Source: a virus
Lineage: Duplodnaviria; Heunggongvirae; Uroviricota; Caudoviricetes
IMG/VR virus record: IMGVR_UViG_2541047954_000009
Reading direction: 5' to 3' (one strand)
Length of the DNA: 36,449 bases
Of the stretch, positions 1 through 33,980 are shown piece by piece (within the stretch, counting starts at the first letter, position 1; the number at the start of each line of letters is the position of its first letter). The notes beneath the pieces were generated by a model. That model was given only the letters and a program-made list of their open reading frames with translations. It was not told the origin of the DNA and searched no databases. Made by a program: the position numbers and the translations under genes.

Positions 1-483
1 ATGACGAAGAAAAAAGCACATAAACCTGGTTCAGCGACCATCGCGCTTAACAAGCGCGCCCGTCACGAATACTTTATCGAAGAAGAGTTCGAAGCGGGAC
101 TTGCCCTGCAAGGCTGGGAGGTTAAATCCCTGCGCGCAGGAAAAGCCAATATCAGCGACAGCTATGTCCTTCTGCGCGACGGAGAGGCATTTCTGTTTGG
201 CGCTAACATCACGCCAATGGCTGTGGCCTCCACGCATGTGGTGTGCGATCCTACCCGTACCCGCAAGTTACTTCTCAACCAGCGCGAACTGGACTCATTG
301 TACGGTCGCGTCAATCGAGAAGGCTATACCGTAGTGGCGCTCTCCCTGTACTGGAAAAATGCCTGGTGCAAAGTGAAAATCGGCGTCGCCAAAGGTAAGA
401 AACAGCACGATAAACGTTCAGATATCAAAGAACGCGAATGGCAGGTGGATAAAGCGCGTATCATGAAAAATGCCCACCGTTAA
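1..483 (+). CDS. smpB: SsrA-binding protein SmpB (complete, 160 aa)
   Basis: Full-length ORF whose translation ([30 protein letters not shown]...) matches enterobacterial SmpB as remembered; lies immediately upstream of ssrA as in E. coli. Confidence 0.96.
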
Positions 484-697: not shown

Positions 698-1060
698 GGG
701 GCTGATTCTGGATTCGACGGGATTTGCGAAACCCAAGGTGCATGCCGAGGGGCGGTTGGCCTCGTAAAAAGCCGCAAAAAATAGTCGCAAACGACGAAAA
801 CTACGCTTTAGCAGCTTAATAACCTGCTTAGAGCCCTCTCTCCCTAGCCTCCGCTCTTAGGACGGGGATCAAGAGAGGTCAAACCCAAAAGAGATCGCGT
901 GGAAGCCCTGCCTGGGGTTGAAGCGTTAAAACTTAATCAGGCTAGTTTGTTAGTGGCGTGTCCGTCCGCAGCTGGCAAGCGAATGTAAAGACTGACTAAG
1001 CATGTAGTACCGAGGATGTAGGAATTTCGGACGCGGGTTCAACTCCCGCCAGCTCCACCA
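698..1060 (+). ncRNA. ssrA: tmRNA (transfer-messenger RNA), 363 nt
   Basis: Begins GGGGCTGATTCTGGATTCGACGG, contains the tag-coding segment gcaaacgacgaaaactacgctttagcagcttaa (ANDENYALAA stop), and ends with the tRNA-like ...GGTTCAACTCCCGCCAGCTCCACCA; matches E. coli ssrA as remembered. Confidence 0.97.
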
Positions 1061-19737: not shown

Positions 19738-21504
19738 ATGAACACCACACTGACACCCGCAGATCTCGATCCCCGTCGGCAGGCCATGCTGCTGTACTTT
19801 CAGGGATACCGCGTAGCCCGCATTGCTGAAATGCTGGGCGAGAAAGTTGCAACCGTTCACAGCTGGAAAAAACGCGACAAGTGGGGTGACTATGGGCCGC
19901 TGGATCAGATGCAGCTCACCACCACCGCACGCTACTGCCAGCTCATCATGAAGGAGCACAAAGAAGGGAAAGATTTCAAAGAGATTGACCTGCTGGCGCG
20001 CCAGTCGGAGCGCCACGCGCGGATCGGCAAGTTTAACAATGGCGGCAACGAAGCTGACTTAAACCCTAACGTCGCCAACCGCAACAAAGGCCCGCGCCGT
20101 CAGCCGGAAAAGAATGTCTTCACCGATGAACAGATTGAGAAGCTGGAAGAAATCTTCCATTCCTCCATGTTCAACTACCAGCGCCACTGGTGGGAAGCCG
20201 GAAAAACCAACCGCATCCGCAACCTGCTGAAGTCACGCCAGATCGGCGCGACCTTTTACTTTGCCCGTGAAGCCCTGATTGACGCCCTGCTTACCGGACG
20301 TAACCAGATTTTCCTTTCCGCCAGTAAGGCACAGGCCCACGTCTTTAAGCAGTACATCATCGACTTCGCCAAAGAAGTGGATGTGGAACTGAAAGGCGAT
20401 CCGATGGTGCTTCCTAACGGGGCCACGCTTTACTTCCTCGGCACCAATGCCCGCACGGCTCAGAGTTACCACGGCAACCTGTATCTGGATGAATATTTCT
20501 GGATACCAAAATTCCAGGAGCTGCGCAAAGTAGCTTCCGGTATGGCTATCCACAAAAAATGGCGGCAGACCTATTTTTCCACGCCATCCAGCCTGACACA
20601 CAGTGCTTATCCGTTCTGGTCCGGTGCGCTGTTCAACCGTGGGCGCAACAAAGCTGACAAGGTGGACATCGACCTGTCCCACAGCAATCTGGCCCCCGGC
20701 CTGCTGTGCGCAGACGGGCAATACCGCCAGATAGTCACCGTGGAAGATGCGGTGCGCGGCGGCTGTAACCTGTTCGACCTCGACCAGCTACGCATGGAGT
20801 ACAGCCCGGACGAATACCAGAACCTGCTGATGTGCGAGTTCGTGGACGATCTCGCGTCCGTGTTCCCGCTCAGCGAACTGCAGGCGTGCATGGTGGACAG
20901 TTGGGAAGTCTGGACCGACTTTCATGCACTGGCCCTGCGCCCGTTTGGCTGGCGCGAGGTGTGGATCGGTTATGACCCGGCAAAAGGTACGCAGAACGGC
21001 GACAGTGCCGGATGCGTGGTGGTGGCTCCGCCAGCCGTGCCGGGCGGTAAGTTCCGTATTCTTGAGCGTCACCAGTGGCGCGGGATGGACTTCCGCGCCC
21101 AGGCTGACGCCATCAAAAAACTTACCGAACAGTACAACGTGACTTATATCGGTATCGACTCAACCGGCGTTGGTCACGGGGTTTACGAGAACGTGAAAGC
21201 GTTCTTTCCTGCCGTCCGGGAGTTTGTCTACAACCCCAATGTTAAAAACGCCCTGGTACTCAAGGCCTACGACATTATCAGCCACCGCCGTCTGGAGTTT
21301 GACGCCGGACACACCGACATAGCGCAGTCATTCATAGCAATCCGGCGCGCCACCACCGCGAGCGGCAACCGCCCAACCTATGAAGCCAGCCGCAGCGAAG
21401 AAGCCAGCCACGCCGATCTGGCCTGGGCAACGATGCACGCACTGTTTAACGAACCGCTGCAGGGCGAATCCGCCAATACCAGCAATATTGTGGAGATTTT
21501 TTGA
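19738..21504 (+). CDS. P: Terminase large (ATPase) subunit P (588 aa)
   Basis: Resembles P2 gpP over its full length, including the ATPase core (KSRQIGATFYF...NLYLDEYFW). Confidence 0.93.
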   Translation: MNTTLTPADLDPRRQAMLLYFQGYRVARIAEMLGEKVATVHSWKKRDKWGDYGPLDQMQLTTTARYCQLIMKEHKEGKDFKEIDLLARQSERHARIGKFNNGGNEADLNPNVANRNKGPRRQPEKNVFTDEQIEKLEEIFHSSMFNYQRHWWEAGKTNRIRNLLKSRQIGATFYFAREALIDALLTGRNQIFLSASKAQAHVFKQYIIDFAKEVDVELKGDPMVLPNGATLYFLGTNARTAQSYHGNLYLDEYFWIPKFQELRKVASGMAIHKKWRQTYFSTPSSLTHSAYPFWSGALFNRGRNKADKVDIDLSHSNLAPGLLCADGQYRQIVTVEDAVRGGCNLFDLDQLRMEYSPDEYQNLLMCEFVDDLASVFPLSELQACMVDSWEVWTDFHALALRPFGWREVWIGYDPAKGTQNGDSAGCVVVAPPAVPGGKFRILERHQWRGMDFRAQADAIKKLTEQYNVTYIGIDSTGVGHGVYENVKAFFPAVREFVYNPNVKNALVLKAYDIISHRRLEFDAGHTDIAQSFIAIRRATTASGNRPTYEASRSEEASHADLAWATMHALFNEPLQGESANTSNIVEIF

Positions 21505-22211
21505 TGCCCCCAATCCCAACTAACCTCATGACTATCGCGGGACTTCCGGTGGATAGCTTTTTCTTTGCTTACCAGTATGAGTGGAACACTGGCCCAAAGA
21601 GTAGAAACCGTGTACTCACAAAAATGCGCCAGGCAGGCGCGGATTTCTTTTTTTCCTATGAAGCCCTGAACGATGCACTGCATACCGGGCGTAACCAGAT
21701 TTTCCTCTGCTGCAGCACAGCATCTGCGCAGGCAATCAAAGCCTATGTATCAGCATTCTTAAGCCAGGCCGCAGCTTATACGCACACTGGAAAAATAAAA
21801 TCAGGCAAAAGTCATCTGGAGCTTTCGAATGGTGCAGTAATTTATTTTACCGACCTCCGCAGTCTCACCTCCGCACTCAGTGGAAATGTTTACGTGTCAG
21901 AGTATGCCTGGAGTGAATCACCGAGAAATATGATTGCCATCGCTAAAGGGATTTCTATGCACGCACACCACCACGCCACCTACTACACCACTCCCAGCCC
22001 TAACCCAGAGGCACGGCAGGAATATAAAAAGCTATGCAGAAACAACAGCGTAACCAGCATGGTGTTCACCGCAGATGACGCAGCAGCATCTGGAGCAATG
22101 TTGTTTACTGATAACTGGCTGAACGATATGAAAAAAGAATTATCAGAAGAGGACTGGAAAATGCTGTTTATGTGCGAATGGCCTCTCGCTAGCAAGGAAC
22201 TGGCAGAATGA
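21504..22211 (+). CDS. Terminase ATPase-domain paralog (truncated, degenerate catalytic motifs), inserted between P and Q
   Basis: 235-aa ORF that aligns by eye to gpP residues about 145-385 of the same prophage (FAYQYEWNTGPKSRNRVLTKMRQAGADFFFSYEALNDALHTGRNQIFL versus FNYQRHWWEAGKTNRIRNLLKSRQIGATFYFAREALIDALLTGRNQIFL), with substitutions at the conserved Thr (to Asp) and Walker-B-like Asp (to Ser); start ATG overlaps the P stop (TGATG) and its stop overlaps the Q start (ATGA). Confidence 0.7.
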   Translation: MPPIPTNLMTIAGLPVDSFFFAYQYEWNTGPKSRNRVLTKMRQAGADFFFSYEALNDALHTGRNQIFLCCSTASAQAIKAYVSAFLSQAAAYTHTGKIKSGKSHLELSNGAVIYFTDLRSLTSALSGNVYVSEYAWSESPRNMIAIAKGISMHAHHHATYYTTPSPNPEARQEYKKLCRNNSVTSMVFTADDAAASGAMLFTDNWLNDMKKELSEEDWKMLFMCEWPLASKELAE

Positions 22212-23239
22212 GCAAACGTAAAAACACCAAGCAGGTAACAGTTGGTCACGACACAAAACCAAGCAACGGCCCAACGGCTGAGGCTTTCAGCTTTGGTGAT
22301 CCCATCCCCGTGCTGGACCGCCGCGAACTGCTGGACTATGTGGAATGCGTACAGATGGATCGCTGGTATGAGCCGCCCGTCAGCTTTAATGGACTGGCGC
22401 GCACCTTCCGCGCCGCCGTGCATCACAGTTCCCCGATTGCAGTAAAGTGCAACATTCTGACCAGTACCTATATCCCTCATCCGCTGCTTAGCCAGCAGGC
22501 TTTTTCGCGTTTTGTGCAGGACTATCTGGTATTTGGTAACGCCTACCTGGAGAAACGCACGAACCGCTTTGGTGAAGTTATCGCCCTTGAGCCAGCTTTG
22601 GCAAAATACACCCGGCGCGGATTAGACCTGGATACCTACTGGTTTGTGCAAGACGGTATGACAGCCCAGCCGTATCAGTTCACGAAAGGCAACATTTTTC
22701 ATCTGATGGAACCGGACATCAACCAGGAGATCTACGGCCTGCCAGGTTATCTCTCTGCCATCCCGTCAGCCCTGCTCAACGAGTCCGCCACACTGTTCCG
22801 CCGTAAGTATTACATCAACGGCAGCCATGCAGGTTTCATCATGTACATGACCGATGCCGCACAGAACCAAGAAGATGTGAACAACCTCCGCAACGCAATG
22901 AAAAGCGCCAAAGGGCCAGGCAACTTCCGCAACCTGTTTATGTACTCTCCTAACGGCAAAAAGGACGGGCTTCAGATTATCCCGTTGTCAGAAGTCGCGG
23001 CGAAGGATGAGTTTCTGAATATCAAGAACGTGAGCCGGGACGACATGATGGCGGCACACCGTGTGCCGCCGCAAATGATGGGGATAATGCCTAATAATGT
23101 TGGGGGGTTTGGGGATGTGGAGAAGGCTAGTAAGGTTTTTGTGATAAATGAATTAATTCCTTTGCAAAAACGATTTATGGAAATAAACGCATGGCTCGGG
23201 GAGAAACTTATAGAATTTTCTCCATATGAGCTTAACTAA
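22208..23239 (+). CDS. Q: Portal protein Q
   Basis: 343-aa ORF resembling P2 gpQ (AVHHSSPI, LNESATLFRRKYY, IPLSEVA segments). Confidence 0.93.
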   Translation: MSKRKNTKQVTVGHDTKPSNGPTAEAFSFGDPIPVLDRRELLDYVECVQMDRWYEPPVSFNGLARTFRAAVHHSSPIAVKCNILTSTYIPHPLLSQQAFSRFVQDYLVFGNAYLEKRTNRFGEVIALEPALAKYTRRGLDLDTYWFVQDGMTAQPYQFTKGNIFHLMEPDINQEIYGLPGYLSAIPSALLNESATLFRRKYYINGSHAGFIMYMTDAAQNQEDVNNLRNAMKSAKGPGNFRNLFMYSPNGKKDGLQIIPLSEVAAKDEFLNIKNVSRDDMMAAHRVPPQMMGIMPNNVGGFGDVEKASKVFVINELIPLQKRFMEINAWLGEKLIEFSPYELN

Positions 23240-23288: not shown

Positions 23289-25625
23289 TTACAAATATGT
23301 ATTGCTATGTAGAGATGTGTTTATTCCATCTTCTATCTCAATTTTTGACGAAGCATACTCATCATTCGCACTATCATCAATATCAAACTCATCTTGTAGA
23401 TGAAGTGACTCATTTAACGGTCTATAAAACTCACCCATCATCATTTTGTAATGGGCAGTATGCTCACTACACTCAAATATCTTCTGAAAAACAATTAAAT
23501 ATTTTTGCACAGACTCCGTATCTAAACTCATATAAAGATCATCACCTGCAAAATGAGAACCATCATTAATCCATGACACTAAAGATTTAAATATGATTTT
23601 TTCATCACCATAAAAATGACACTCAAGCTTCCTAATATCAATCCCACCTAATATCTTAAAGTAATTCTCCAAAATCCTTCGCATTGTATTTTGTATAGTA
23701 TTATTATTAATATCTGTTCTTCTCAATTCGCACCAGAGCAAATCATAAGACGTTTTTATTGGGTTTGATTCGCACTTTTCAAGATATGAGACCTTCCCTT
23801 TTTTCCTTACAATCCAAAAAGTCTCCTCTTTCATTGCTTGATTACCGGATCTTTTAGTATTAAAAGTCAACTCTTTATGAAAATAAATATTATGCGTAAG
23901 GAATATAATTTGCTTAATATTTCCTTCATCCTTACGAACATCCTCCATTAAATCTTTAATCAACGAACTTACAATAAACAGAATATCACTATCTAAACTT
24001 GAAATTGGATCATCAAATACTACAACACGATCATCTAAAACACCTGATGCATTATCACTCCCTCTAACAAGGCTATAAAAATACAAAAAAGTGATAAATG
24101 TCTTTTCTCCCTCGCTAAGGGTTGTACGAGCATTATCTCCACTATCTCTCACTATCATATAATGCTTTTTATCTTCGGAGGGTTTTAAGTAAAAATTTTT
24201 GAAGCCATAAGAATCCAGAATCTTGTTAATTTTTGTAATAGTTGGAAGAGTACTGGTTTTATTAGACTCAATTGCCTCAATAGCCGAAGCATTTAACATT
24301 AACTTCTTTTTGTCTTCCTCTAACCCAGATTTAAGTCCTTGTAACTTCCTATTAAATTTATCAGATTCGCTACGGTAAGAAGTTATTTCAGACTTTAACT
24401 CCACCTTTACGATATATGCCCATATCTGATTAGAAAGATTACTAGCCTCTACCTTTCTATTACTGTGTATTTTGTTATTATTATCTATCAATAGATTTGA
24501 ATCATTCAAAAAAGAAATAAAATCATCAACAACTTCACTTAAGTCACTAAAATGAACTGATTCACTTAAAAAATTGCGTTTATTTTTTGCCAATTCAAAA
24601 TTCTTGTTTAATTCAGATAATACTATCTTAGCCTTATCCTCAAATACTTCATAATTTATGAATGGAGATTTAATCGCCCTTATATCATCTATCGCCTGCA
24701 AGATATTATTAAGTTGATGTTCATATTGTAAAACCAATGCATCGATTTCTCTTTTTTTTAACTCATATGTTTTATCAAAATATGATGATAGATTATAAAA
24801 TATATTATCATTTACATCCTGCTGGCAAAATGGGCACTTGGGATTAGATTTACTGAAATATGTTAAACCTTCCTTAACCCAATCACTGTTATTGAGCATT
24901 GTAATTAAGTCTGAAACACTAACGTCTTTTTTCCCTAGAATACGCTCACTCCAAATCTCCCTACTCAAAATATCATCTATCCTATTGAAGGATGGAATTG
25001 TAATTGATACATGTGATGTCAATTCAGTAGAAAAAACAATTTTTGCTTTCTCAATTAGCTCTGCTATTGAGCAAACTTCTGATGTGTTATTTTCATACTC
25101 AGCCAACACTCTAGCTTTAAATTTTTCACTACTATTCCTTAATCCCTCAAAAGCCTTTGAGAACACATTATCATGTTTTACTTTTTGCTTCCAACATGAA
25201 TCTTTAAAAGATTTTTCATGGTCTTCGATTTGTTTAACAACGCCTAATATATTATCACCACCATCTATTAGCTTTTCCTTTGCTATAATAGATTCTATTA
25301 GCTTATTTTTTTCTTCTTCAAGAGATATTAGTTTCTCTTCATCCTCCTTAAGATCGCTACCAAGGGTAAATACACCTTTAATTTTATCTTGACTAAAATT
25401 TCTTTCAACAAAATCTTTATTATATACGTAGCTTATTAAAGATATATTATTTTTCCATTTAATCGGACATGTTGGATATTGTTCAGGGTCATTAATAATT
25501 TTACTTATAGTTGTTTTACCTGCACCATTAGCTCCATATAAATAGTTAAATTTAGAAAGCCCATGTAAAAGCTGAGTAGGGCCATTATATGAGCCTACTT
25601 TGTCAATAACTACCTCTTCAATCAT
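23289..25625 (-). CDS. ABC-type P-loop ATPase of the PrrC/RloC-like AAA_13 kind (778 aa); candidate anti-phage/abortive-infection protein
   Basis: Walker A YGANGAGKTT (aa 30-39, nt 25509-25535), CPFC zinc-hook-like motif (aa 264-267, nt 24825-24836) in a Lys/Glu-rich coiled-coil-like insert, ABC signature-like LSEGEK (aa 503-508), Walker B VVVFDDP (aa 534-540, nt 24006-24026), H-loop THN (aa 577-579), and a C-terminal region with RRILENYF and SH. Markedly AT-rich, between Q and the cos site. Confidence 0.75.
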   Translation of the reverse strand: MIEEVVIDKVGSYNGPTQLLHGLSKFNYLYGANGAGKTTISKIINDPEQYPTCPIKWKNNISLISYVYNKDFVERNFSQDKIKGVFTLGSDLKEDEEKLISLEEEKNKLIESIIAKEKLIDGGDNILGVVKQIEDHEKSFKDSCWKQKVKHDNVFSKAFEGLRNSSEKFKARVLAEYENNTSEVCSIAELIEKAKIVFSTELTSHVSITIPSFNRIDDILSREIWSERILGKKDVSVSDLITMLNNSDWVKEGLTYFSKSNPKCPFCQQDVNDNIFYNLSSYFDKTYELKKREIDALVLQYEHQLNNILQAIDDIRAIKSPFINYEVFEDKAKIVLSELNKNFELAKNKRNFLSESVHFSDLSEVVDDFISFLNDSNLLIDNNNKIHSNRKVEASNLSNQIWAYIVKVELKSEITSYRSESDKFNRKLQGLKSGLEEDKKKLMLNASAIEAIESNKTSTLPTITKINKILDSYGFKNFYLKPSEDKKHYMIVRDSGDNARTTLSEGEKTFITFLYFYSLVRGSDNASGVLDDRVVVFDDPISSLDSDILFIVSSLIKDLMEDVRKDEGNIKQIIFLTHNIYFHKELTFNTKRSGNQAMKEETFWIVRKKGKVSYLEKCESNPIKTSYDLLWCELRRTDINNNTIQNTMRRILENYFKILGGIDIRKLECHFYGDEKIIFKSLVSWINDGSHFAGDDLYMSLDTESVQKYLIVFQKIFECSEHTAHYKMMMGEFYRPLNESLHLQDEFDIDDSANDEYASSKIEIEDGINTSLHSNTYL

Positions 25626-25758
25626 CCTCTAATCCTCAAAAAACAGATTAATCCTATCAAATCAATGATAATAGAAGACATTACTTACCTAATTACAAGG
25701 TGATCATTTATACAGCTGTGAATAAATCAGGCTAATCATCTATTTGTCATAACGCGCG

Positions 25759-25777
25759 CTCGTATCCCCGCCACGCC
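25759..25777 (-). other. Candidate cos site (cohesive-end region)
   Basis: Minus-strand GGCGTGGCGGGGATACGAG matches the first 13 nt of the 19-nt cohesive-end sequence I recall for 186 (GGCGTGGCGGGGAAAGCAT) and is close to that of P2. Confidence 0.5.
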
Positions 25778-25820
25778 TGCCCGCTTTATGTAGTGGTTTT
25801 CATGCACCTGCATGATCTAC

Positions 25821-25846
25821 GCAAAAGCCCGCCAGTTCTGGCGGGC
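25821..25846 (-). terminator. Rho-independent terminator downstream of the dinI-like gene
   Basis: GC-rich hairpin GCCCGCCAG/CTGGCGGGC followed on the minus strand by CTTTTGC. Confidence 0.55.
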
Positions 25847-25981
25847 CTTAGCAAAAACGATCCTCAAACGATCATGCGATCTCATGCGGCATAGACATGC
25901 ACTACAGAGCTAACGCCTCGCAAGGGCTCGTTGTTCAACCTTGCTGACGCCAGAAGCAAGTTCAGACGCCAGCAACGTTTC

Positions 25982-26215
25982 TTAATGCAGCCAGCTGTCG
26001 TCTTCCCACACCTTCTGCATAATTTTCATCACTTGTTTTCTTTCTTCGTCCAGTTGCAGTCCGGTTAGTTCCACACCGTTAGAGCTACCTTTGCGAATGC
26101 GAATTACCGTTTTGGGATACAGGGGGCGCAGATTGCGGTAAAGCTCGGATTCAAGGGCGTCCAGGGTAGACTGGCTAATCTTCTGCTCTTTATCGATCAT
26201 TATTTCAATGCGCAT
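25982..26215 (-). CDS. dinI: DinI-like protein (77 aa)
   Basis: MRIEIMIDKEQKISQSTLDALESELYRNLRPLYPKTVIRIRKG...QKVWEDDSWL resembles the DinI family; start at ATG 26215 with RBS GAGGTGA, not the longer ORF start at 26287. Confidence 0.8.
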   Translation of the reverse strand: MRIEIMIDKEQKISQSTLDALESELYRNLRPLYPKTVIRIRKGSSNGVELTGLQLDEERKQVMKIMQKVWEDDSWLH

Positions 26216-26225
26216 AAAAGTCACC

Positions 26226-26414
26226 TCAGCTGATGACATCCATTGAGCGGTTGTATTCGTGGGTTCTGATTTTTGCCATGAGTTCATCAGTCAATTCAGA
26301 AACCCACTGCAGAGCCAGCCCCTTCTCTTCATCACTACACTCACTAGCCGCTACAAGCTTAAGAAAAAAATCAATGCGCTGGAGCTTCAAAGACTCCAAA
26401 AAATAGTCCTGCAT
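26226..26414 (-). CDS. Small SOS-controlled protein, putative Tum-like antirepressor (62 aa)
   Basis: ORF starting MQDYFLESLKLQRIDFFLK with a strong RBS (AGGAGG) and a LexA box about 40 bp upstream; position relative to dinI, A and cos matches the 186 tum locus as remembered. The six-frame ORF start at 26516 lies upstream of the promoter and is rejected. Confidence 0.5.
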   Translation of the reverse strand: MQDYFLESLKLQRIDFFLKLVAASECSDEEKGLALQWVSELTDELMAKIRTHEYNRSMDVIS

Positions 26415-26455
26415 CTTTCCTCCTATGACACCACACGCAATACTGTATGCATAAC

Positions 26456-26475
26456 CACTGTTTATATTTACAGTA
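26456..26475. promoter_or_regulatory. LexA (SOS) box overlapping a sigma70-like promoter for the tum-like/dinI-like operon
   Basis: CACTGTTTATATTTACAGTA fits CTGT-N8-ACAG (consensus TACTGTATATATATACAGTA); on the minus strand a TTTACA -35-like hexamer lies just upstream and a TATACT -10-like hexamer overlaps the box. Confidence 0.8.
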
Positions 26476-26567
26476 TATAATAATCTTACTGATGTAAAAC
26501 GTTTTTTTACGTTCATCAGCCTGATATGCCTGGTATTATTAAGAGCACGAATTGTTAACCCGCGTAA

Positions 26568-28982
26568 TTAATACAGGTTCCGCCACTGATCATCTTCCTG
26601 CAAACGCTGGTTCCGATAGAAGATACGCAGGCCTGCTCCTGACGGAATACTGCCTCCGCGAAGGAGTAAATCGACCTCTTTCTCGCTGCCATCAAATCCT
26701 CTGGACTTCAGCTCATACACGAGCTGCAGTCGCTGATGGTCTGTAATTCGCTGTTTGTAGTCTTTACGCCGTTTCGGTTTCACCAGGCGTAACCTTGCTG
26801 CCAGTTCCCGGCGCTCTTTTTTGCTCATACTGTGCAGGTAATCGTGCAACTCCTTGTCATCCATGCTGGTAATGTCCGTTCTGGGGTCCCCATCAGCTGA
26901 TTTATCTTTCTCCTGTTGGTTCAAATTTTCAGCAAGGGGACAGTTATTGCCACGAGTCCAAGGGGCGCAAGCGCCCTGGTCGGCTGCCGCCTCCTGAACG
27001 TCAACGGCCTTACGAACCATTTTCCACTTCACGGCATGAGTGCAGATTTTGCCCTCTGCAATGGGTGACCAGATGCCATAAATACGAATGCCGTGATCGC
27101 CATAGGCGGTCGGCTCTTCGTTGATTTCATAAGCGGTTCTGATGAGGTGATATTTGCGGGGGACCAGTACGCCGCCCTGCTTCATGATGTAGGTGGCAAA
27201 ACAACCAGCATCAGCTGCAGCCAGAATGGCATCAAGGCGCGGGTTATCCAGTACCGGCGCACCTGCTTTTTTGTCACCCTGTTGCCTTGCCGCCTGACCA
27301 GCCAGCAATCGCAGTTCACGGTAAGCCTGACGCCCCGGAATGCCAAAGAAGCGGAATTGCTGAACACGATGCAGAGACGCCCAGGCATTAACGTATTCAG
27401 CGTTATCACGCAGAGATTTACCCGTTTCCTTGCTGATCTCGCCAGCCAGACCACGCCCGTCAATGTTCTTACTGATGTATTTCGCGATGTAGCTAGTCGG
27501 CGTTCCTTTGCGCGGGTTTATCAGCTCAGACTTAAAGCGTGGCCCCGTGTTATTACCCAGCTCCTCGCGGTCTTCACGAATGGCAAACTTACGCAACAAA
27601 GCAGTAATGGTGCGGCGATCTTTTTTGCGCATAAAACACAACAGGTGCCAGTGAACTGTACCGTCATGATGCGGCTCAGCCACCCGCACGCCATACCAGC
27701 GCAATCCGGCTTTGTGCATCGCCTTACGAAATGCAGCAAACATGCCGACCAGATAATCACTGCTTTGTCTTACCGTCGTATTTGTCCAGGTCGGGTTGGG
27801 CCTGCCGTTATTTAGCGTGGAATGGAAACGTGACGGACAGGTGATGGTGTAGAAAACGGCGCAGTCACCGCGCATTTCCGCGATAAGCTCCAGACCTTTA
27901 ACACAGGCCATCATCTCATTGCGGCGATGCGCAGGGTTGCTGCTGCTGGCGTTTACCACATCCTCCATGTCCAGCGTGTCGCCGTCTTCGTTCACCAGTT
28001 CATGAGAACGGAAAAACTCCAGCGACTTACGGCGCTGCTCACGTTTATGCATCACGGCTTCATAGCTGACATAGGGAGATGCTTTTTTGCTGACCAGGCA
28101 AACAGCACGCAACTGCTCTTCCCGCCATTCGCAACGCATCTTCCATAATTTCCGGTACCACCAATCGGCGCACAACATACGCGCCAGCGAACCCGGAATG
28201 AGTTCATAGGGCACGGGTTTACGGCGGTTTCTTTTCCGGCGGAGTTGCTCAAACGCAGGCGGTATGACATCCAGTCGCAGGGTTTCTGCTGCCACCTTTT
28301 CCCATGTCTTGCGGATTTCTTCTGGCTTAACGTCATCGGTGGCATACAAATCGCCACAAGCTGCATCAAGGCACATGCTCATATGCGCAGCAACAAGGGT
28401 GGACAGGCGTTTCACCTGATCCTGACTCATTTCAGGCAGAATCAGCAGGCCGTCCAGCCCTTCATGGCTTGCCATAAAGCGAAAAGAAGTGGATAGCTGA
28501 CTGTCGCGTACATGCTCCAGCCGTTCCAGACATGGCTTAATCGTCTCACGCAAATAGCGGGAATAAGCCTTTGGCCTGCCAAGGCTGCTGAAGTATTCAA
28601 TACGTTGCATCAGCGGCCTGCTGATATGGGAAGGCTGGGCGTTAACGTCTGCCAGAATGACCATGTCCGGGTTAAAACGCTGCTGCTCATGCGCCAACTT
28701 TGCCCGGCTAATGAGCTTATCCTGCTCCATTTCGCGCTGGACAGGATCACGGGATTCATTAAAGAAATAACGCTCCCAAACCTGATCACTCAGTGCCTCG
28801 CGGCGCAGTTGTTCCTGCTCGTTATCGGCAGCGTACAGAGTGATCAGGTTTGAAAGCGCAGAAACCGGCGCAACTTCCGCCGGGTCCAGATAAGGGTTAA
28901 TAGCCTTTTTCGGGCTGTTCCATGAGAATGCTGCGGCGGCCTCGTTAAAGCCGCTGCAGTTGTTCATATCAGCATGGCTCAT
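26568..28982 (-). CDS. A: Replication initiation protein A (rolling-circle endonuclease, 804 aa)
   Basis: Long ORF resembling the P2/186 gpA replication protein family as remembered; located in the early region upstream of the cos-proximal genes. Confidence 0.88.
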
Positions 28983-31422: not shown

Positions 31423-31932
31423 TCACAGCAAACCGAATGAAGCACCGAGGCCAGTCACGGTATCAACTGCACTCACCATCGCAGGATTAGCCTGTAAACG
31501 GGCCTGCAATGAAACAGCCGCCAGCGCCATCAGTCGTGTTACAGAGTTAATGCTGCTGATAGCATCACGACGACCGGCACTAGTTTTTACATCACCAGAT
31601 ACCGCACCTGCTGCAACACGCCCGATCTCTGCAGTTGCGCTCATGACGTAATGCGGCAGTTTCTCTTTTGCCACCTCATTAATCGGTACACATGGCAGAC
31701 AATGAATCTGTGCCAGAAAACCATCTACCAGCGTTGAATCTTCAGTCAGATCGGTAAGCAGCCAGATTTCTGGTGCGGTTAATAAATGAGGCTGAGCTGG
31801 GTTCAGCTTGTTCCGCAGAATCTGCACATTCATGCCTGCACGTTCTGCCAGTTGCACCAGGTTGTGACGCAGTGCAAAAGCCCTACAGGCTTCATCGAAA
31901 TGCGGATGTTTGGAAATCTTGTAATCAAACAT
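31423..31932 (-). CDS. cII: CII-like lysogeny-establishment transcriptional activator (169 aa)
   Basis: Resembles 186 CII as remembered ([24 protein letters not shown]...[16 protein letters not shown]...), same length and position after the apl-like gene. Confidence 0.8.
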
Positions 31933-32328: not shown

Positions 32329-32961
32329 ATGTTAAACATCAGAATGGGTTCCGATACGGGAGGTAAGGCAGCTATTGAGAGGCTGCTTGAGGCTTATGGA
32401 TTCACAACTAAGCAGGCATTAAGCGAGCACCTGAATGTCTCAAAAAGTACTATGGCAAACAGAGTGTTACGTGACAGTTTTCCTGCTGACTGGATAATTC
32501 AGTGTGCACTAGAAACCGGTGTTTCGTTACTTTGGTTAGCCACTGGACAGGGAAGCATGAAAGAAGGATACGAGCCTGAGAAAAGATCTCATAACGAGAA
32601 CAAACAAGCAATTAAACCGTTATCCAAACTCATAACTCCATCTATTCCTAAAGGAACCTTGGAAAATGGACAACTCAGTATTGATGAAGAGATTTTCCTA
32701 GACCACAGCATATTACCTGCAGATTATGAAGAATCGATGTTCTTAGAAACCCCTACTGATTGTTATCTCATCGATAAATCAGTTAAACAAGTCAGCAATG
32801 GATTCTGGCTTATCAATATTGATGGAATGATTATTATTGCAAAAATCATGCGGATTCCCGGCAATAAGATTGTAGTAAATCAAGATGAAGCGTCTTTCGA
32901 GTGCTCTGCTGATGATGTGGAAGTTATTGGGCGTGCAGTCAAAGTAATAAAGAGTATCTAA
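32329..32961 (+). CDS. cI: CI-like immunity repressor (210 aa)
   Basis: ORF with an N-terminal HTH-like region (TTKQALSEHLNVSKSTMANRV), divergent from the apl-like gene and directly followed by int as in 186; RBS GGAG 7 nt upstream. Confidence 0.75.
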   Translation: MLNIRMGSDTGGKAAIERLLEAYGFTTKQALSEHLNVSKSTMANRVLRDSFPADWIIQCALETGVSLLWLATGQGSMKEGYEPEKRSHNENKQAIKPLSKLITPSIPKGTLENGQLSIDEEIFLDHSILPADYEESMFLETPTDCYLIDKSVKQVSNGFWLINIDGMIIIAKIMRIPGNKIVVNQDEASFECSADDVEVIGRAVKVIKSI

Positions 32962-32963
32962 AC

Positions 32964-33980
32964 ATGACTGTCAGAAAACAGCCAAACGGTAAATGGTTGT
33001 GCGAGTGCTATCCCAATGGACGCAATGGCAAGCGCGTGCGTAAGCAATTTGCTACGAAAGGCGAAGCCATTGCTTTTGAAAGCTTCACAATGGAAGAAGT
33101 GAACAAAAAACCATGGCTGGGGGAAAAGGAAGATCGGCGACACCTATCAGAATTAATTGAGCAGTGGTATTCCCTGTATGGTCAAACACTCGCAGACCCC
33201 AAGCGCCTCATAGCGAAACTTAGAATTATCTGTAATGGTCTAGGCGATCCCATCGCTTCAGAACTGACAGCCGGTGACTTTACGAAATACCGCGAAGCAC
33301 GGTTAAAAGGTGAAGTACGAAATGAAGATGGCACGTTTATGTCGCCCGTTAAGCCCCGCACGGTAAACCTTGAACAGCGCAATCTATCATCTGTTTTTGG
33401 TACACTGAAAAAGCTGGGCCACTGGTCAGCCCCCAACCCGCTTGCTGGGCTGCCAACATTTAAAATTGCTGAGAGTGAATTGGCGTTCCTGACCCCGGAA
33501 GAAATTAAACGTCTGCTGGATGCCTGCGCCGATTCTCAAAGCTCCAGCCTGCTTTTGATTGCAAAAATATGCCTGGCCACCGGCGCACGCTGGAGCGAAG
33601 CCGAAAACCTGCAGAGTCATCAGGTATCAAAATACCGTATCACTTATACCAAGACCAAAGGCAAGAAAAACCGAACTGTGCCTATTTCTAAGGATTTATA
33701 TGAAGAACTGCCTAAGAATAGGGGGAAGTTATTCACCCCATGCAGAAAAGCCTTTGAGCGTGCAGTAAAGCGGGCTGGTATCGATCTGCCAGAGGGTCAA
33801 TGTACTCACGTTCTGCGTCATACATTCGCTAGCCATTTTATGATGAATGGTGGAAACATATTGGTTTTGCGGGATATCCTAGGACATTCAGATATAAAAA
33901 TGACCATGGTCTATGCACACTTCGCCCCAGACCATTTAGAAGATGCCGTAACTAAAAATCCTTTATTTAATTTGAGGTAA
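32964..33980 (+). CDS. int: Tyrosine site-specific integrase (P2/186 Int family)
   Basis: 338-aa ORF with the C-terminal catalytic region of tyrosine recombinases (ATGARWSEAENL...HVLRHTFASHFMMNGGNILVLRDILGHSDIKMTMVYAH); adjacent to the att site. Confidence 0.93.
   Translation: MTVRKQPNGKWLCECYPNGRNGKRVRKQFATKGEAIAFESFTMEEVNKKPWLGEKEDRRHLSELIEQWYSLYGQTLADPKRLIAKLRIICNGLGDPIASELTAGDFTKYREARLKGEVRNEDGTFMSPVKPRTVNLEQRNLSSVFGTLKKLGHWSAPNPLAGLPTFKIAESELAFLTPEEIKRLLDACADSQSSSLLLIAKICLATGARWSEAENLQSHQVSKYRITYTKTKGKKNRTVPISKDLYEELPKNRGKLFTPCRKAFERAVKRAGIDLPEGQCTHVLRHTFASHFMMNGGNILVLRDILGHSDIKMTMVYAHFAPDHLEDAVTKNPLFNLR

Follow-up and report, generated by a model that had tools for sequence, protein, structure and literature searches.

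How is a P2/186-like prophage released from lysogeny when its repressor bears no recognizable self-cleavage domain? The question is raised by a short module on the minus strand of the window, by which we mean the whole 36,449-nt stretch of DNA that was analyzed. This stretch represents a segment of the E. coli chromosome with a complete-looking P2/186-like (Peduoviridae) prophage beside ssrA, and its landmarks are as follows:

1-483: smpB, host-side landmark
698-1060: tmRNA (ssrA), host-side landmark, Rfam match
ogr, tail and head genes, terminase gpP and portal gpQ: prophage landmarks
28982..26568, minus strand: replication gene A (gpA), Pfam Phage_GPA at 3e-127
Dam-like methylase and Apl-like ORF: prophage landmarks
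31932..31423: CII, prophage landmark
32329..32961, plus strand: CI immunity repressor, 186-type
32964..33980: integrase, prophage landmark
from 35472: csiD, host gene

Read along the minus strand, the module consists of the following elements:

26493..26498, minus strand: -35 hexamer TTTACA, equivalent to that of the 186 promoter p95
26456..26475, minus strand: LexA box TACTGTAAATATAAACAGTG (plus-strand reading CACTGTTTATATTTACAGTA)
26441..26448, minus strand: isolated LexA half-site ATACAGTA, 7 nt downstream of the full box
26226..26414, minus strand: tumA, 62-aa antirepressor homologue
25982..26215, minus strand: tumB, 77-aa DinI-family protein
25937..25979, minus strand: stable hairpin directly after tumB, without a U-tract
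25820..25849, minus strand: canonical intrinsic terminator, GC stem followed by UUUU

We are highly confident that this module serves as the SOS operon of a Peduoviridae prophage of the Fels-2/186 type, integrated beside ssrA, and that it works in the following way. In the lysogen, host LexA would occupy the box that overlaps the -10 element and keep the operon silent. Upon DNA damage, RecA-stimulated self-cleavage of LexA would free the promoter, and tumA and tumB would be transcribed together. TumA would then bind the 186-type CI and prevent it from occupying its operators, allowing the early lytic promoter to fire and induction to proceed without cleavage of CI. TumB would be an accessory, the switch itself working without it. 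As a split tumA/tumB SOS operon of the kind standard in Fels-2-type prophages, the module is already known. The preliminary description had proposed induction logic of the 186 type, in which LexA controls a Tum antirepressor while CI stays uncleaved. The box, the homology to Tum, the type of CI and the genetics of a related prophage in E. coli HS support this logic, but the fused Tum of 186 is here split into tumA and tumB. LexA-dependent induction and the requirement for the 62-aa ORF were demonstrated for the near-identical HS element, and SOS control of tum for 186, and by analogy both would extend to the window. We infer direct binding of TumA to CI in the Fels-2-type subtype, its contact with the CI N-terminal domain, and the role of TumB.

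CI repressor and TumA

The CI protein carries the Pfam domains Phage_CI_repr and Phage_CI_C and matches the 186 CI structures 2FJR and 2FKD. No Peptidase_S24 match was found in it at E<=0.01; its C-terminal domain is Phage_CI_C, which sets it apart from lambda-type self-cleaving repressors. It had been noted earlier that CI shows no LexA-like autocleavage motif, and the domain assignment agrees with this. Since CI has 186-type domains, lacks S24 and matches 2FJR and 2FKD, the 186-type logic was assigned to the window. In 186 itself, as established by Lamont 1989 and Shearwin 1998, p95 is repressed by LexA and Tum is made after DNA damage, whereupon Tum binds CI reversibly and blocks operator binding, CI remaining uncleaved. 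186 also resembles the window in having its module directly after gene A, in carrying a 186-type CI, Apl and CII, and in having same-strand cargo downstream.

The candidate antirepressor gene, tumA, has a strong ribosome binding site, as had been stated (AGGAGG, 26424..26419, 4 nt before the ATG), and ends in TGA (26228..26226). Its product shares 98% identity with both E. coli HS tum and Fels-2 STM2728, a single residue (T51S) separating it from the HS protein. Between the window and phage SopEPhi, 19 codon changes in tumA are synonymous and 7 are non-synonymous, the pattern expected of a real coding gene. The same ORF can be read as 96 aa from a start at 26516, but we rejected this reading, as its start would lie upstream of the promoter and the conserved N-terminus of the family is MQD at 26414. 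The AlphaFold2 model of TumA is a two-helix hairpin (H2-23 and H28-61; pLDDT, 88), and a search of the TumA profile against solved structures gave no match.

An alignment of the 62-aa protein with the N-terminal region of 186 Tum had been suggested as a check. BLASTP returned no alignment between the two, but homology was found by three other routes. First, an ungapped Smith-Waterman alignment of TumA residues 7-41 with 186 Tum scored 57, while shuffled sequences scored 21.4 +/- 4.0 (z ~8.8) and 0 of 2000 reached 57. Second, hhalign of a 28-member TumA family profile with 186 Tum residues 5-44 gave a probability of 94.5% and E=7.6e-8 over 40 columns. Third, residues 7-44 of 186 Tum match phrog_698, the PHROG to which TumA itself belongs, at 2.7e-5. 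Judged by these sequence comparisons, TumA and the N-terminal part of 186 Tum are remote homologues.

The family was followed across 19 loci encoding TumA homologues, which comprise 13 distinct proteins with identities down to 12%. A LexA box, defined as CTG-N10-CAG with <=4 mismatches and located no more than 130 nt before the tumA start, is present in all 19. The tumA gene lies directly after gene A in 15 of the 19, that is, wherever the flank reaches gene A; the contigs of the remaining loci (L020, L024, L025 and L031) end short of it. This synteny is seen in 186, PSP3, Fels-2, HS, L015-L019, L021-L023, L026-L030 and L032, and in the window too the tumA start at 26414 follows gpA on the same strand. 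Wherever the flanks reach CI, the CI that accompanies TumA is of the 186 type. The family motif is M.D...E..LQRI.L..RLVA...CS..DKELAL.W..ELT.EL. TumA found no match in Pfam, NCBIfam or PADLOC, and it is labeled "hypothetical protein" in RefSeq records and "unknown function" in PHROGs. Much of the residual value of the locus therefore lies in this annotation gap, TumA being functionally unnamed in RefSeq, PHROGs, Pfam, NCBIfam and PADLOC. It can be narrowed by a simple rule: where gene A is followed by a LexA box and a protein of ~60 aa of the form M.D..(F/L)E..LQRI...RLVA...C...DKELAL.W..EL, the protein can be annotated as a TumA antirepressor. What is new here is modest, namely, the 19/19 LexA boxes, the optional DinI gene, the tracking of the CI N-terminal domain by TumA and the TumA annotation gap.

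We infer that CI is the target of TumA, and the two proteins were compared across phages. Phages with a 98-100% identical TumA have CIs that share only 40-97% identity with the window CI. Identity to the window CI is 60% in Fels-2, 44% in HS, 52% in Kp4845-2, 40% in 4LV2017 and 96.7% in Salmonella phage RE2010; it is 43% in ST11-OXA48phi15.3, whose CI has a duplicated N-terminal domain. Given the 60% identity to the Fels-2 CI, the immunity of the two prophages is probably different. The divergence is uneven along the protein, the HS and window CIs being 68% identical in the N-terminal domain and 31% in the C-terminal domain. Within the group sharing the same TumA, which spans at least six CI types, the N-terminal domain is 57-81% and the C-terminal domain 27-58% identical. 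A near-constant TumA paired with divergent CIs means either that a conserved surface of CI is recognized or that some of the pairs are mismatched.

Pairwise identity of TumA was correlated with that of the CI N-terminal domain (Spearman, 0.67; Mantel p ~0.001) in a sample of 14 phages that are phylogenetically non-independent, include three entries with one TumA sequence and have L029, L030 and L032 as outliers. Among the 9 phages with long flanks, the value was 0.56 (p ~0.02). TumA identity was uncorrelated with that of the CI C-terminal domain (0.06), gpA (0.12) or CII (0.25). This co-variation hints at contact between TumA and a conserved face of the CI DNA-binding domain, a lead and not a result; such a contact would agree with the blocking of operator binding by Tum. 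A literature search found no paper defining the CI domain bound by Tum, and we offer the co-variation as a modest new point, a testable hint at where the antirepressor may bind.

These comparisons also bear on whether TumA could bring about induction without binding CI, for example, through Apl, CII or a host factor. Direct binding of CI is known only for the fused 186 Tum, whose N-terminal part is ~20% identical to the window TumA. One TumA sequence accompanies CIs that are only 40-60% identical to each other, and the study of the HS prophage, the Phollow study, says of the targets only that they are "pro-lysogenic regulators" (PMC11195241). An indirect route is at odds, however, with the homology of TumA to a protein that binds CI and blocks its operator binding (Shearwin 1998), with the strict co-occurrence of TumA and 186-type CI, and with an identity of TumA that co-varies with that of the N-terminal domain of CI but with that of neither CII nor gpA. 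We consider such a route improbable, and binding of TumA to CI is the reading that we retain.

A broader proposal built on the same sequence data is that TumA may be a generalist antirepressor, recognizing a conserved face of the CI N-terminal (HTH) domain and not an immunity-specific surface. We put this forward tentatively, as a proposal somewhat likelier to fail than to hold. If it were true, heteroimmune P2-like prophages residing in one cell would be cross-inducible.

Roles of tumA and tumB

The preliminary description had placed a DinI-like gene in tandem after the 62-aa ORF, and this arrangement was confirmed. The tumB start lies 10 nt past the tumA stop codon, and its SD, GAGGTGA, overlaps that stop codon. 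TumB belongs to the Pfam DinI family (PF06183; E=6.6e-23, 81.3 bits against a cut-off of 24.2) and matches PDB 1GHH, E. coli DinI, at 2.7e-6. The match to E. coli DinI covers the full length at ~30% identity, including the C-terminal acidic W..E/D..W helix, and the score falls below the NCBIfam DinI equivalog cut-off (42.7 versus 111 bits). Unlike E. coli DinI, TumB is phage-borne and co-transcribed with an antirepressor. It is identical (100%) to Fels-2 STM2726.1, and it shares 78% identity with PSP3 TumB and 41% with 186 Tum over residues 71-145 of the latter.

Both the N-terminal antirepressor region and the DinI-like region of 186 Tum thus have homologues in the window. Their arrangement differs: Tum of 186 is a single polypeptide of 146 aa, with internal starts nested within it, whereas the window has two genes separated by a 10-nt gap. 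In place of a fused Tum of ~146 aa, we found a TGA stop, and the DinI-like ORF has an SD and an ATG of its own. The unfused ORFs, adjacent and co-oriented behind one LexA box, place the module in the split tumA/tumB subtype. PSP3 and Fels-2 have the same two-gene architecture behind a LexA box, even though PSP3 TumA is only 22% identical to the window TumA.

The split has been described before. The PSP3 record annotates tumA (60 aa) as "similar to 5' end 186 tum; UV induction of prophage" and tumB as "similar to dinI and 3' end of 186 tum." In the Fels-2 record, STM2728 (62 aa) precedes a gene of the DinI family, whose similarity to PSP3 TumB is noted there. According to Lemire et al. 2011, tum is split in Fels-2 and PSP3 and the antirepressor is the product of the upstream gene; a 2002 paper and a personal communication from G. 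Christie are cited for the split. They also cite Bunny, Liu and Roth 2002 for Fels-2 and the lethality of lexA-null mutations. PMC3448106, on the regulatory genes of P2-like phages, makes no mention of tum, SOS or LexA.

Genetics on the HS element bear on which of the two genes is the inducer. In the "P2" prophage of E. coli HS, an in-frame deletion of tum abolished both mitomycin C lysis and virion foci (PMC11195241). The halves of the deletion primers, GTGGTGTCATAGGAGGAAAGATG-TGA and ATG-TGAGGTGACTTTTATGCGCATTG, match the window exactly at 26412-26434 and 26206-26228. The HS deletion thus took out precisely the tumA ORF and did not touch tumB. The HS prophage and the window are identical in the promoter, the LexA box and the deletion junctions. 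The HS prophage differs in carrying other cargo and in being integrated near rcdA/ybjL, versus ssrA here.

It could be argued that TumB is nevertheless the inducer, acting, for instance, on RecA or CI, and that the 62-aa ORF is a leader peptide or an accessory. A DinI-like part does belong to the 186 Tum polypeptide, and the annotation adds that this part is also translated on its own, as a product that "modulates SOS induction"; between the window and PSP3, TumB is better conserved than TumA (78% versus 22%). The HS deletion speaks against this reading, since it fused the start and stop of the 62-aa ORF, spared the tumB SD and ORF, and still abolished induction. The PSP3 annotation and the Christie communication likewise assign the antirepressor activity to the upstream gene, and many phages have a LexA box and TumA with no DinI gene. 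An inducing role for TumB is, in our estimate, a shade less probable even than induction by TumA through a target other than CI.

The distribution of the DinI gene was as follows. It comes after tumA in the Fels-2 type, L021, L022, L030, L031 and PSP3 and is fused to it in 186. It is absent after tumA in ESSI2_ev040, L015-L019, L023-L024, L026-L029 and L032. In L020 and L025, a short ORF without a Pfam match lies downstream of tumA. None of the 66 representatives of the TumA family has a C-terminal DinI fusion. The conserved core is the LexA box with TumA, and the DinI gene is optional.

With TumA as the inducer, TumB probably acts on RecA filaments and so tunes the SOS signal. The earlier idea that it could dampen the host SOS response derives from its membership in the DinI family and from the 186 annotation of a truncated DinI-like product as an SOS modulator, and it may hold as a prediction from family membership. 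In the Gifsy prophages, non-polar dinI deletions had no significant effect on induction (Lemire et al. 2011), which leaves the role of TumB uncertain. As described there, the operons of the Gifsy antirepressors GfoA and GftA (with dinI and irsA) are alike in being LexA-repressed, in combining an antirepressor with a DinI homologue and in leaving the repressor uncleaved. Unlike the window module, they have dinI first, belong to lambdoid phages and act on another repressor family; this comparison was made by description.

LexA box and SOS promoter

The LexA box has 3 mismatches to the 20-nt palindromic consensus TACTGTATATATATACAGTA, with CTG-N10-CAG intact. It is the sole such site in the 36.4-kb window, and 0 of 100 shuffles gave one. 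Its first six bases, 26475..26470, form the -10 element TACTGT, so that the left arm of the box coincides with the -10 of a promoter reading TTTACA-17 nt-TACTGT. The claim that a LexA box overlaps a sigma70-like promoter directly upstream of the 62-aa ORF thus stands, with the details that the box lies on the minus strand and is unique in the window. A generic sigma-70 promoter scan of positions 25600-26700 called no site and missed the TTTACA-TACTGT promoter because its -10 matches only 3 of 6 consensus positions. The promoter, including its -35 hexamer, was instead read from the sequence by eye and by analogy with the annotated p95 of 186. That promoter is of like design (TTCACA, 18 nt, TACTGT), with its -10 forming the left arm of the 186 LexA box TACTGTATGTTTATACAGTA.

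The promoter and the box are identical in E. coli HS and Fels-2. In SopEPhi, 21 of 86 upstream nucleotides differ from the window, yet the box shows only one change, which falls in the spacer. Downstream of the full box, the half-site ATACAGTA is fully kept in HS and SopEPhi, and its Fels-2 counterpart is GTACAGTA. In the MAFFT alignment, this half-site is paired with the right arm of the LexA boxes of 186 and PSP3. The CTG that would form its left arm is lacking in the window, which has GTG at that place.

In HS, lexA(Ind-) separately abolished mitomycin C lysis and virion foci (PMC11195241). The induction tests that the preliminary description had proposed thus already exist for a 98%-identical orthologue with an identical promoter and box. 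That the palindrome is a chance or decayed site, with the operon constitutive or served by read-through from gene A, is hardly credible: the three consensus mismatches and the promoter left uncalled by the generic scan are outweighed by the shuffles, by a box kept while its flanks diverge, by its presence in 19/19 TumA loci and by the block to induction that lexA(Ind-) imposes in HS, where the box is identical. It is very probable that the SOS response can induce the prophage by the 186/Fels-2 route, and DNA-damaging antibiotics should mobilize it.

Distribution and operon end

A 768-bp block around the module is 100% identical in E. coli strains Ecol_542 and MINF_1D and is present in 1144 of 5426 complete E. 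coli genomes. Escherichia and Klebsiella phages match this block at 95-99.7% identity, and 13 records of Salmonella phages match the module DNA. The 62-aa protein is found in Salmonella phages Fels-2, RE2010, SEN8 and SopEPhi at 88.7-98.4% identity. An Rfam scan gave no match inside the module, ssrA being detected elsewhere in the window.

A hairpin terminator had been reported after the operon and is indeed present; two hairpins were found, and both lie outside the interval 25982-26475. The one directly after tumB folds with -23.5 kcal/mol (z=-4.0). The canonical terminator at 25849..25820, missed by a terminator scan, folds with -24.8 kcal/mol, and 0 of 200 shuffles folded as well. It falls within the 768-bp block, which is common to phages with different downstream cargo, and it is likely the end of the SOS operon. 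A 6-bp hairpin called by the scan over the tumA stop and the tumB SD (26237..26220) was weak, within chance expectation, and was discarded.

Downstream of the module and co-oriented with tum, the window carries a PDC-S06 AAA_13 protein (anti-phage) as cargo. The corresponding cargo of 186 is orf97, which the 186 record annotates within the p95 operon. By analogy, the PDC-S06 cargo may receive SOS-dependent read-through.

Elements around the probably LexA-controlled tumA/tumB operon

Two further elements were found in the probable SOS operon that encodes the 62-aa antirepressor homologue TumA and the DinI-family protein TumB:

26441-26448, minus strand: isolated LexA half-site ATACAGTA, 7 nt downstream of the full LexA box
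26220-26237, minus strand: 6-bp hairpin GTCATC-AGCTGA-GGTGAC followed by TTTTAT, covering the stop codon of tumA and the Shine-Dalgarno sequence of tumB

The half-site is unchanged in the E. coli HS prophage and SopEPhi and reads GTACAGTA in Fels-2; in the alignment it falls opposite the right arm of the LexA boxes of 186 and PSP3. Where its left arm would be expected, GTG stands in place of CTG. The half-site may be left over from an ancestral position of the box, or it may be a second, weak site. The hairpin is no more than chance expectation for the region; it could couple translation of tumB to that of tumA. Among the compared phages, some 186-type CI immunity repressors (286 to 292 aa), namely those of PSP3 and Klebsiella phage ST11-OXA48phi15.3, have an N-terminal HTH domain that is duplicated in tandem. 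The Klebsiella phage has this doubled-HTH CI, yet its TumA is 100% identical to that of the window.

A variable cargo slot downstream of tumB

Directly 3' of tumB lies a variable cargo slot, occupied here by a gene in the same orientation as tumB:

23289-25625, minus strand: 778-aa AAA_13 ATPase (Pfam AAA_13, 4.6e-164)

In PADLOC, the protein hits the candidate defence family PDC-S06 with 3e-266 and has weak similarity to PrrC and LmuB. In 186, the same slot is filled by orf97, which the annotation of the 186 record places between the partial terminator t95a and t95b, the terminator of the transcript from the SOS promoter p95. The slots of other loci contain a putAbiC gene, a restriction-modification pair, an AAA_15/21 gene, GAPS4 or a Hypoth_Ymh gene. 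A promoter scan of the interval between the terminator and the start of the PDC-S06 gene found no consensus promoter, so it is possible that this gene receives SOS read-through.

A terminase-like ORF between gpP and gpQ

An extra ORF separates the genes for the terminase gpP (19738-21504) and the portal gpQ (22208-23239):

21501-22211, plus strand: 236-aa terminase-like ORF

It overlaps gpP by 4 nt at one end and gpQ by 4 nt at the other. Matches to Pfam Terminase_6N (4.8e-17) and phrog_3746 (1.2e-85), together with 32% identity to gpP residues 142-368, identify it as a paralogue of the ATPase domain of the terminase that stands alone as a separate protein. Read by eye, RQIGAT and LYLDEY of gpP, which we take to be Walker A and Walker B, are replaced by RQAGAD and VYVSEY; because these presumed motifs are altered, its ATPase is possibly dead. 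The ORF is rare, being carried at ~80% identity by only three phage records (Yersinia vB_YpM_MLG42 and two of Escherichia phage 500465-1). P abuts Q in Fels-2, HS, Cartapus and the Klebsiella phages. A packaging decoy or anti-satellite role is conceivable.

Integration site

The ogr end of the prophage is flanked by two genes:

1-483, plus strand: smpB
698-1060, plus strand: ssrA (tmRNA), 295.8 bits

The window prophage therefore adjoins ssrA, whereas the integration site of the related prophage in E. coli HS lies near rcdA/ybjL.
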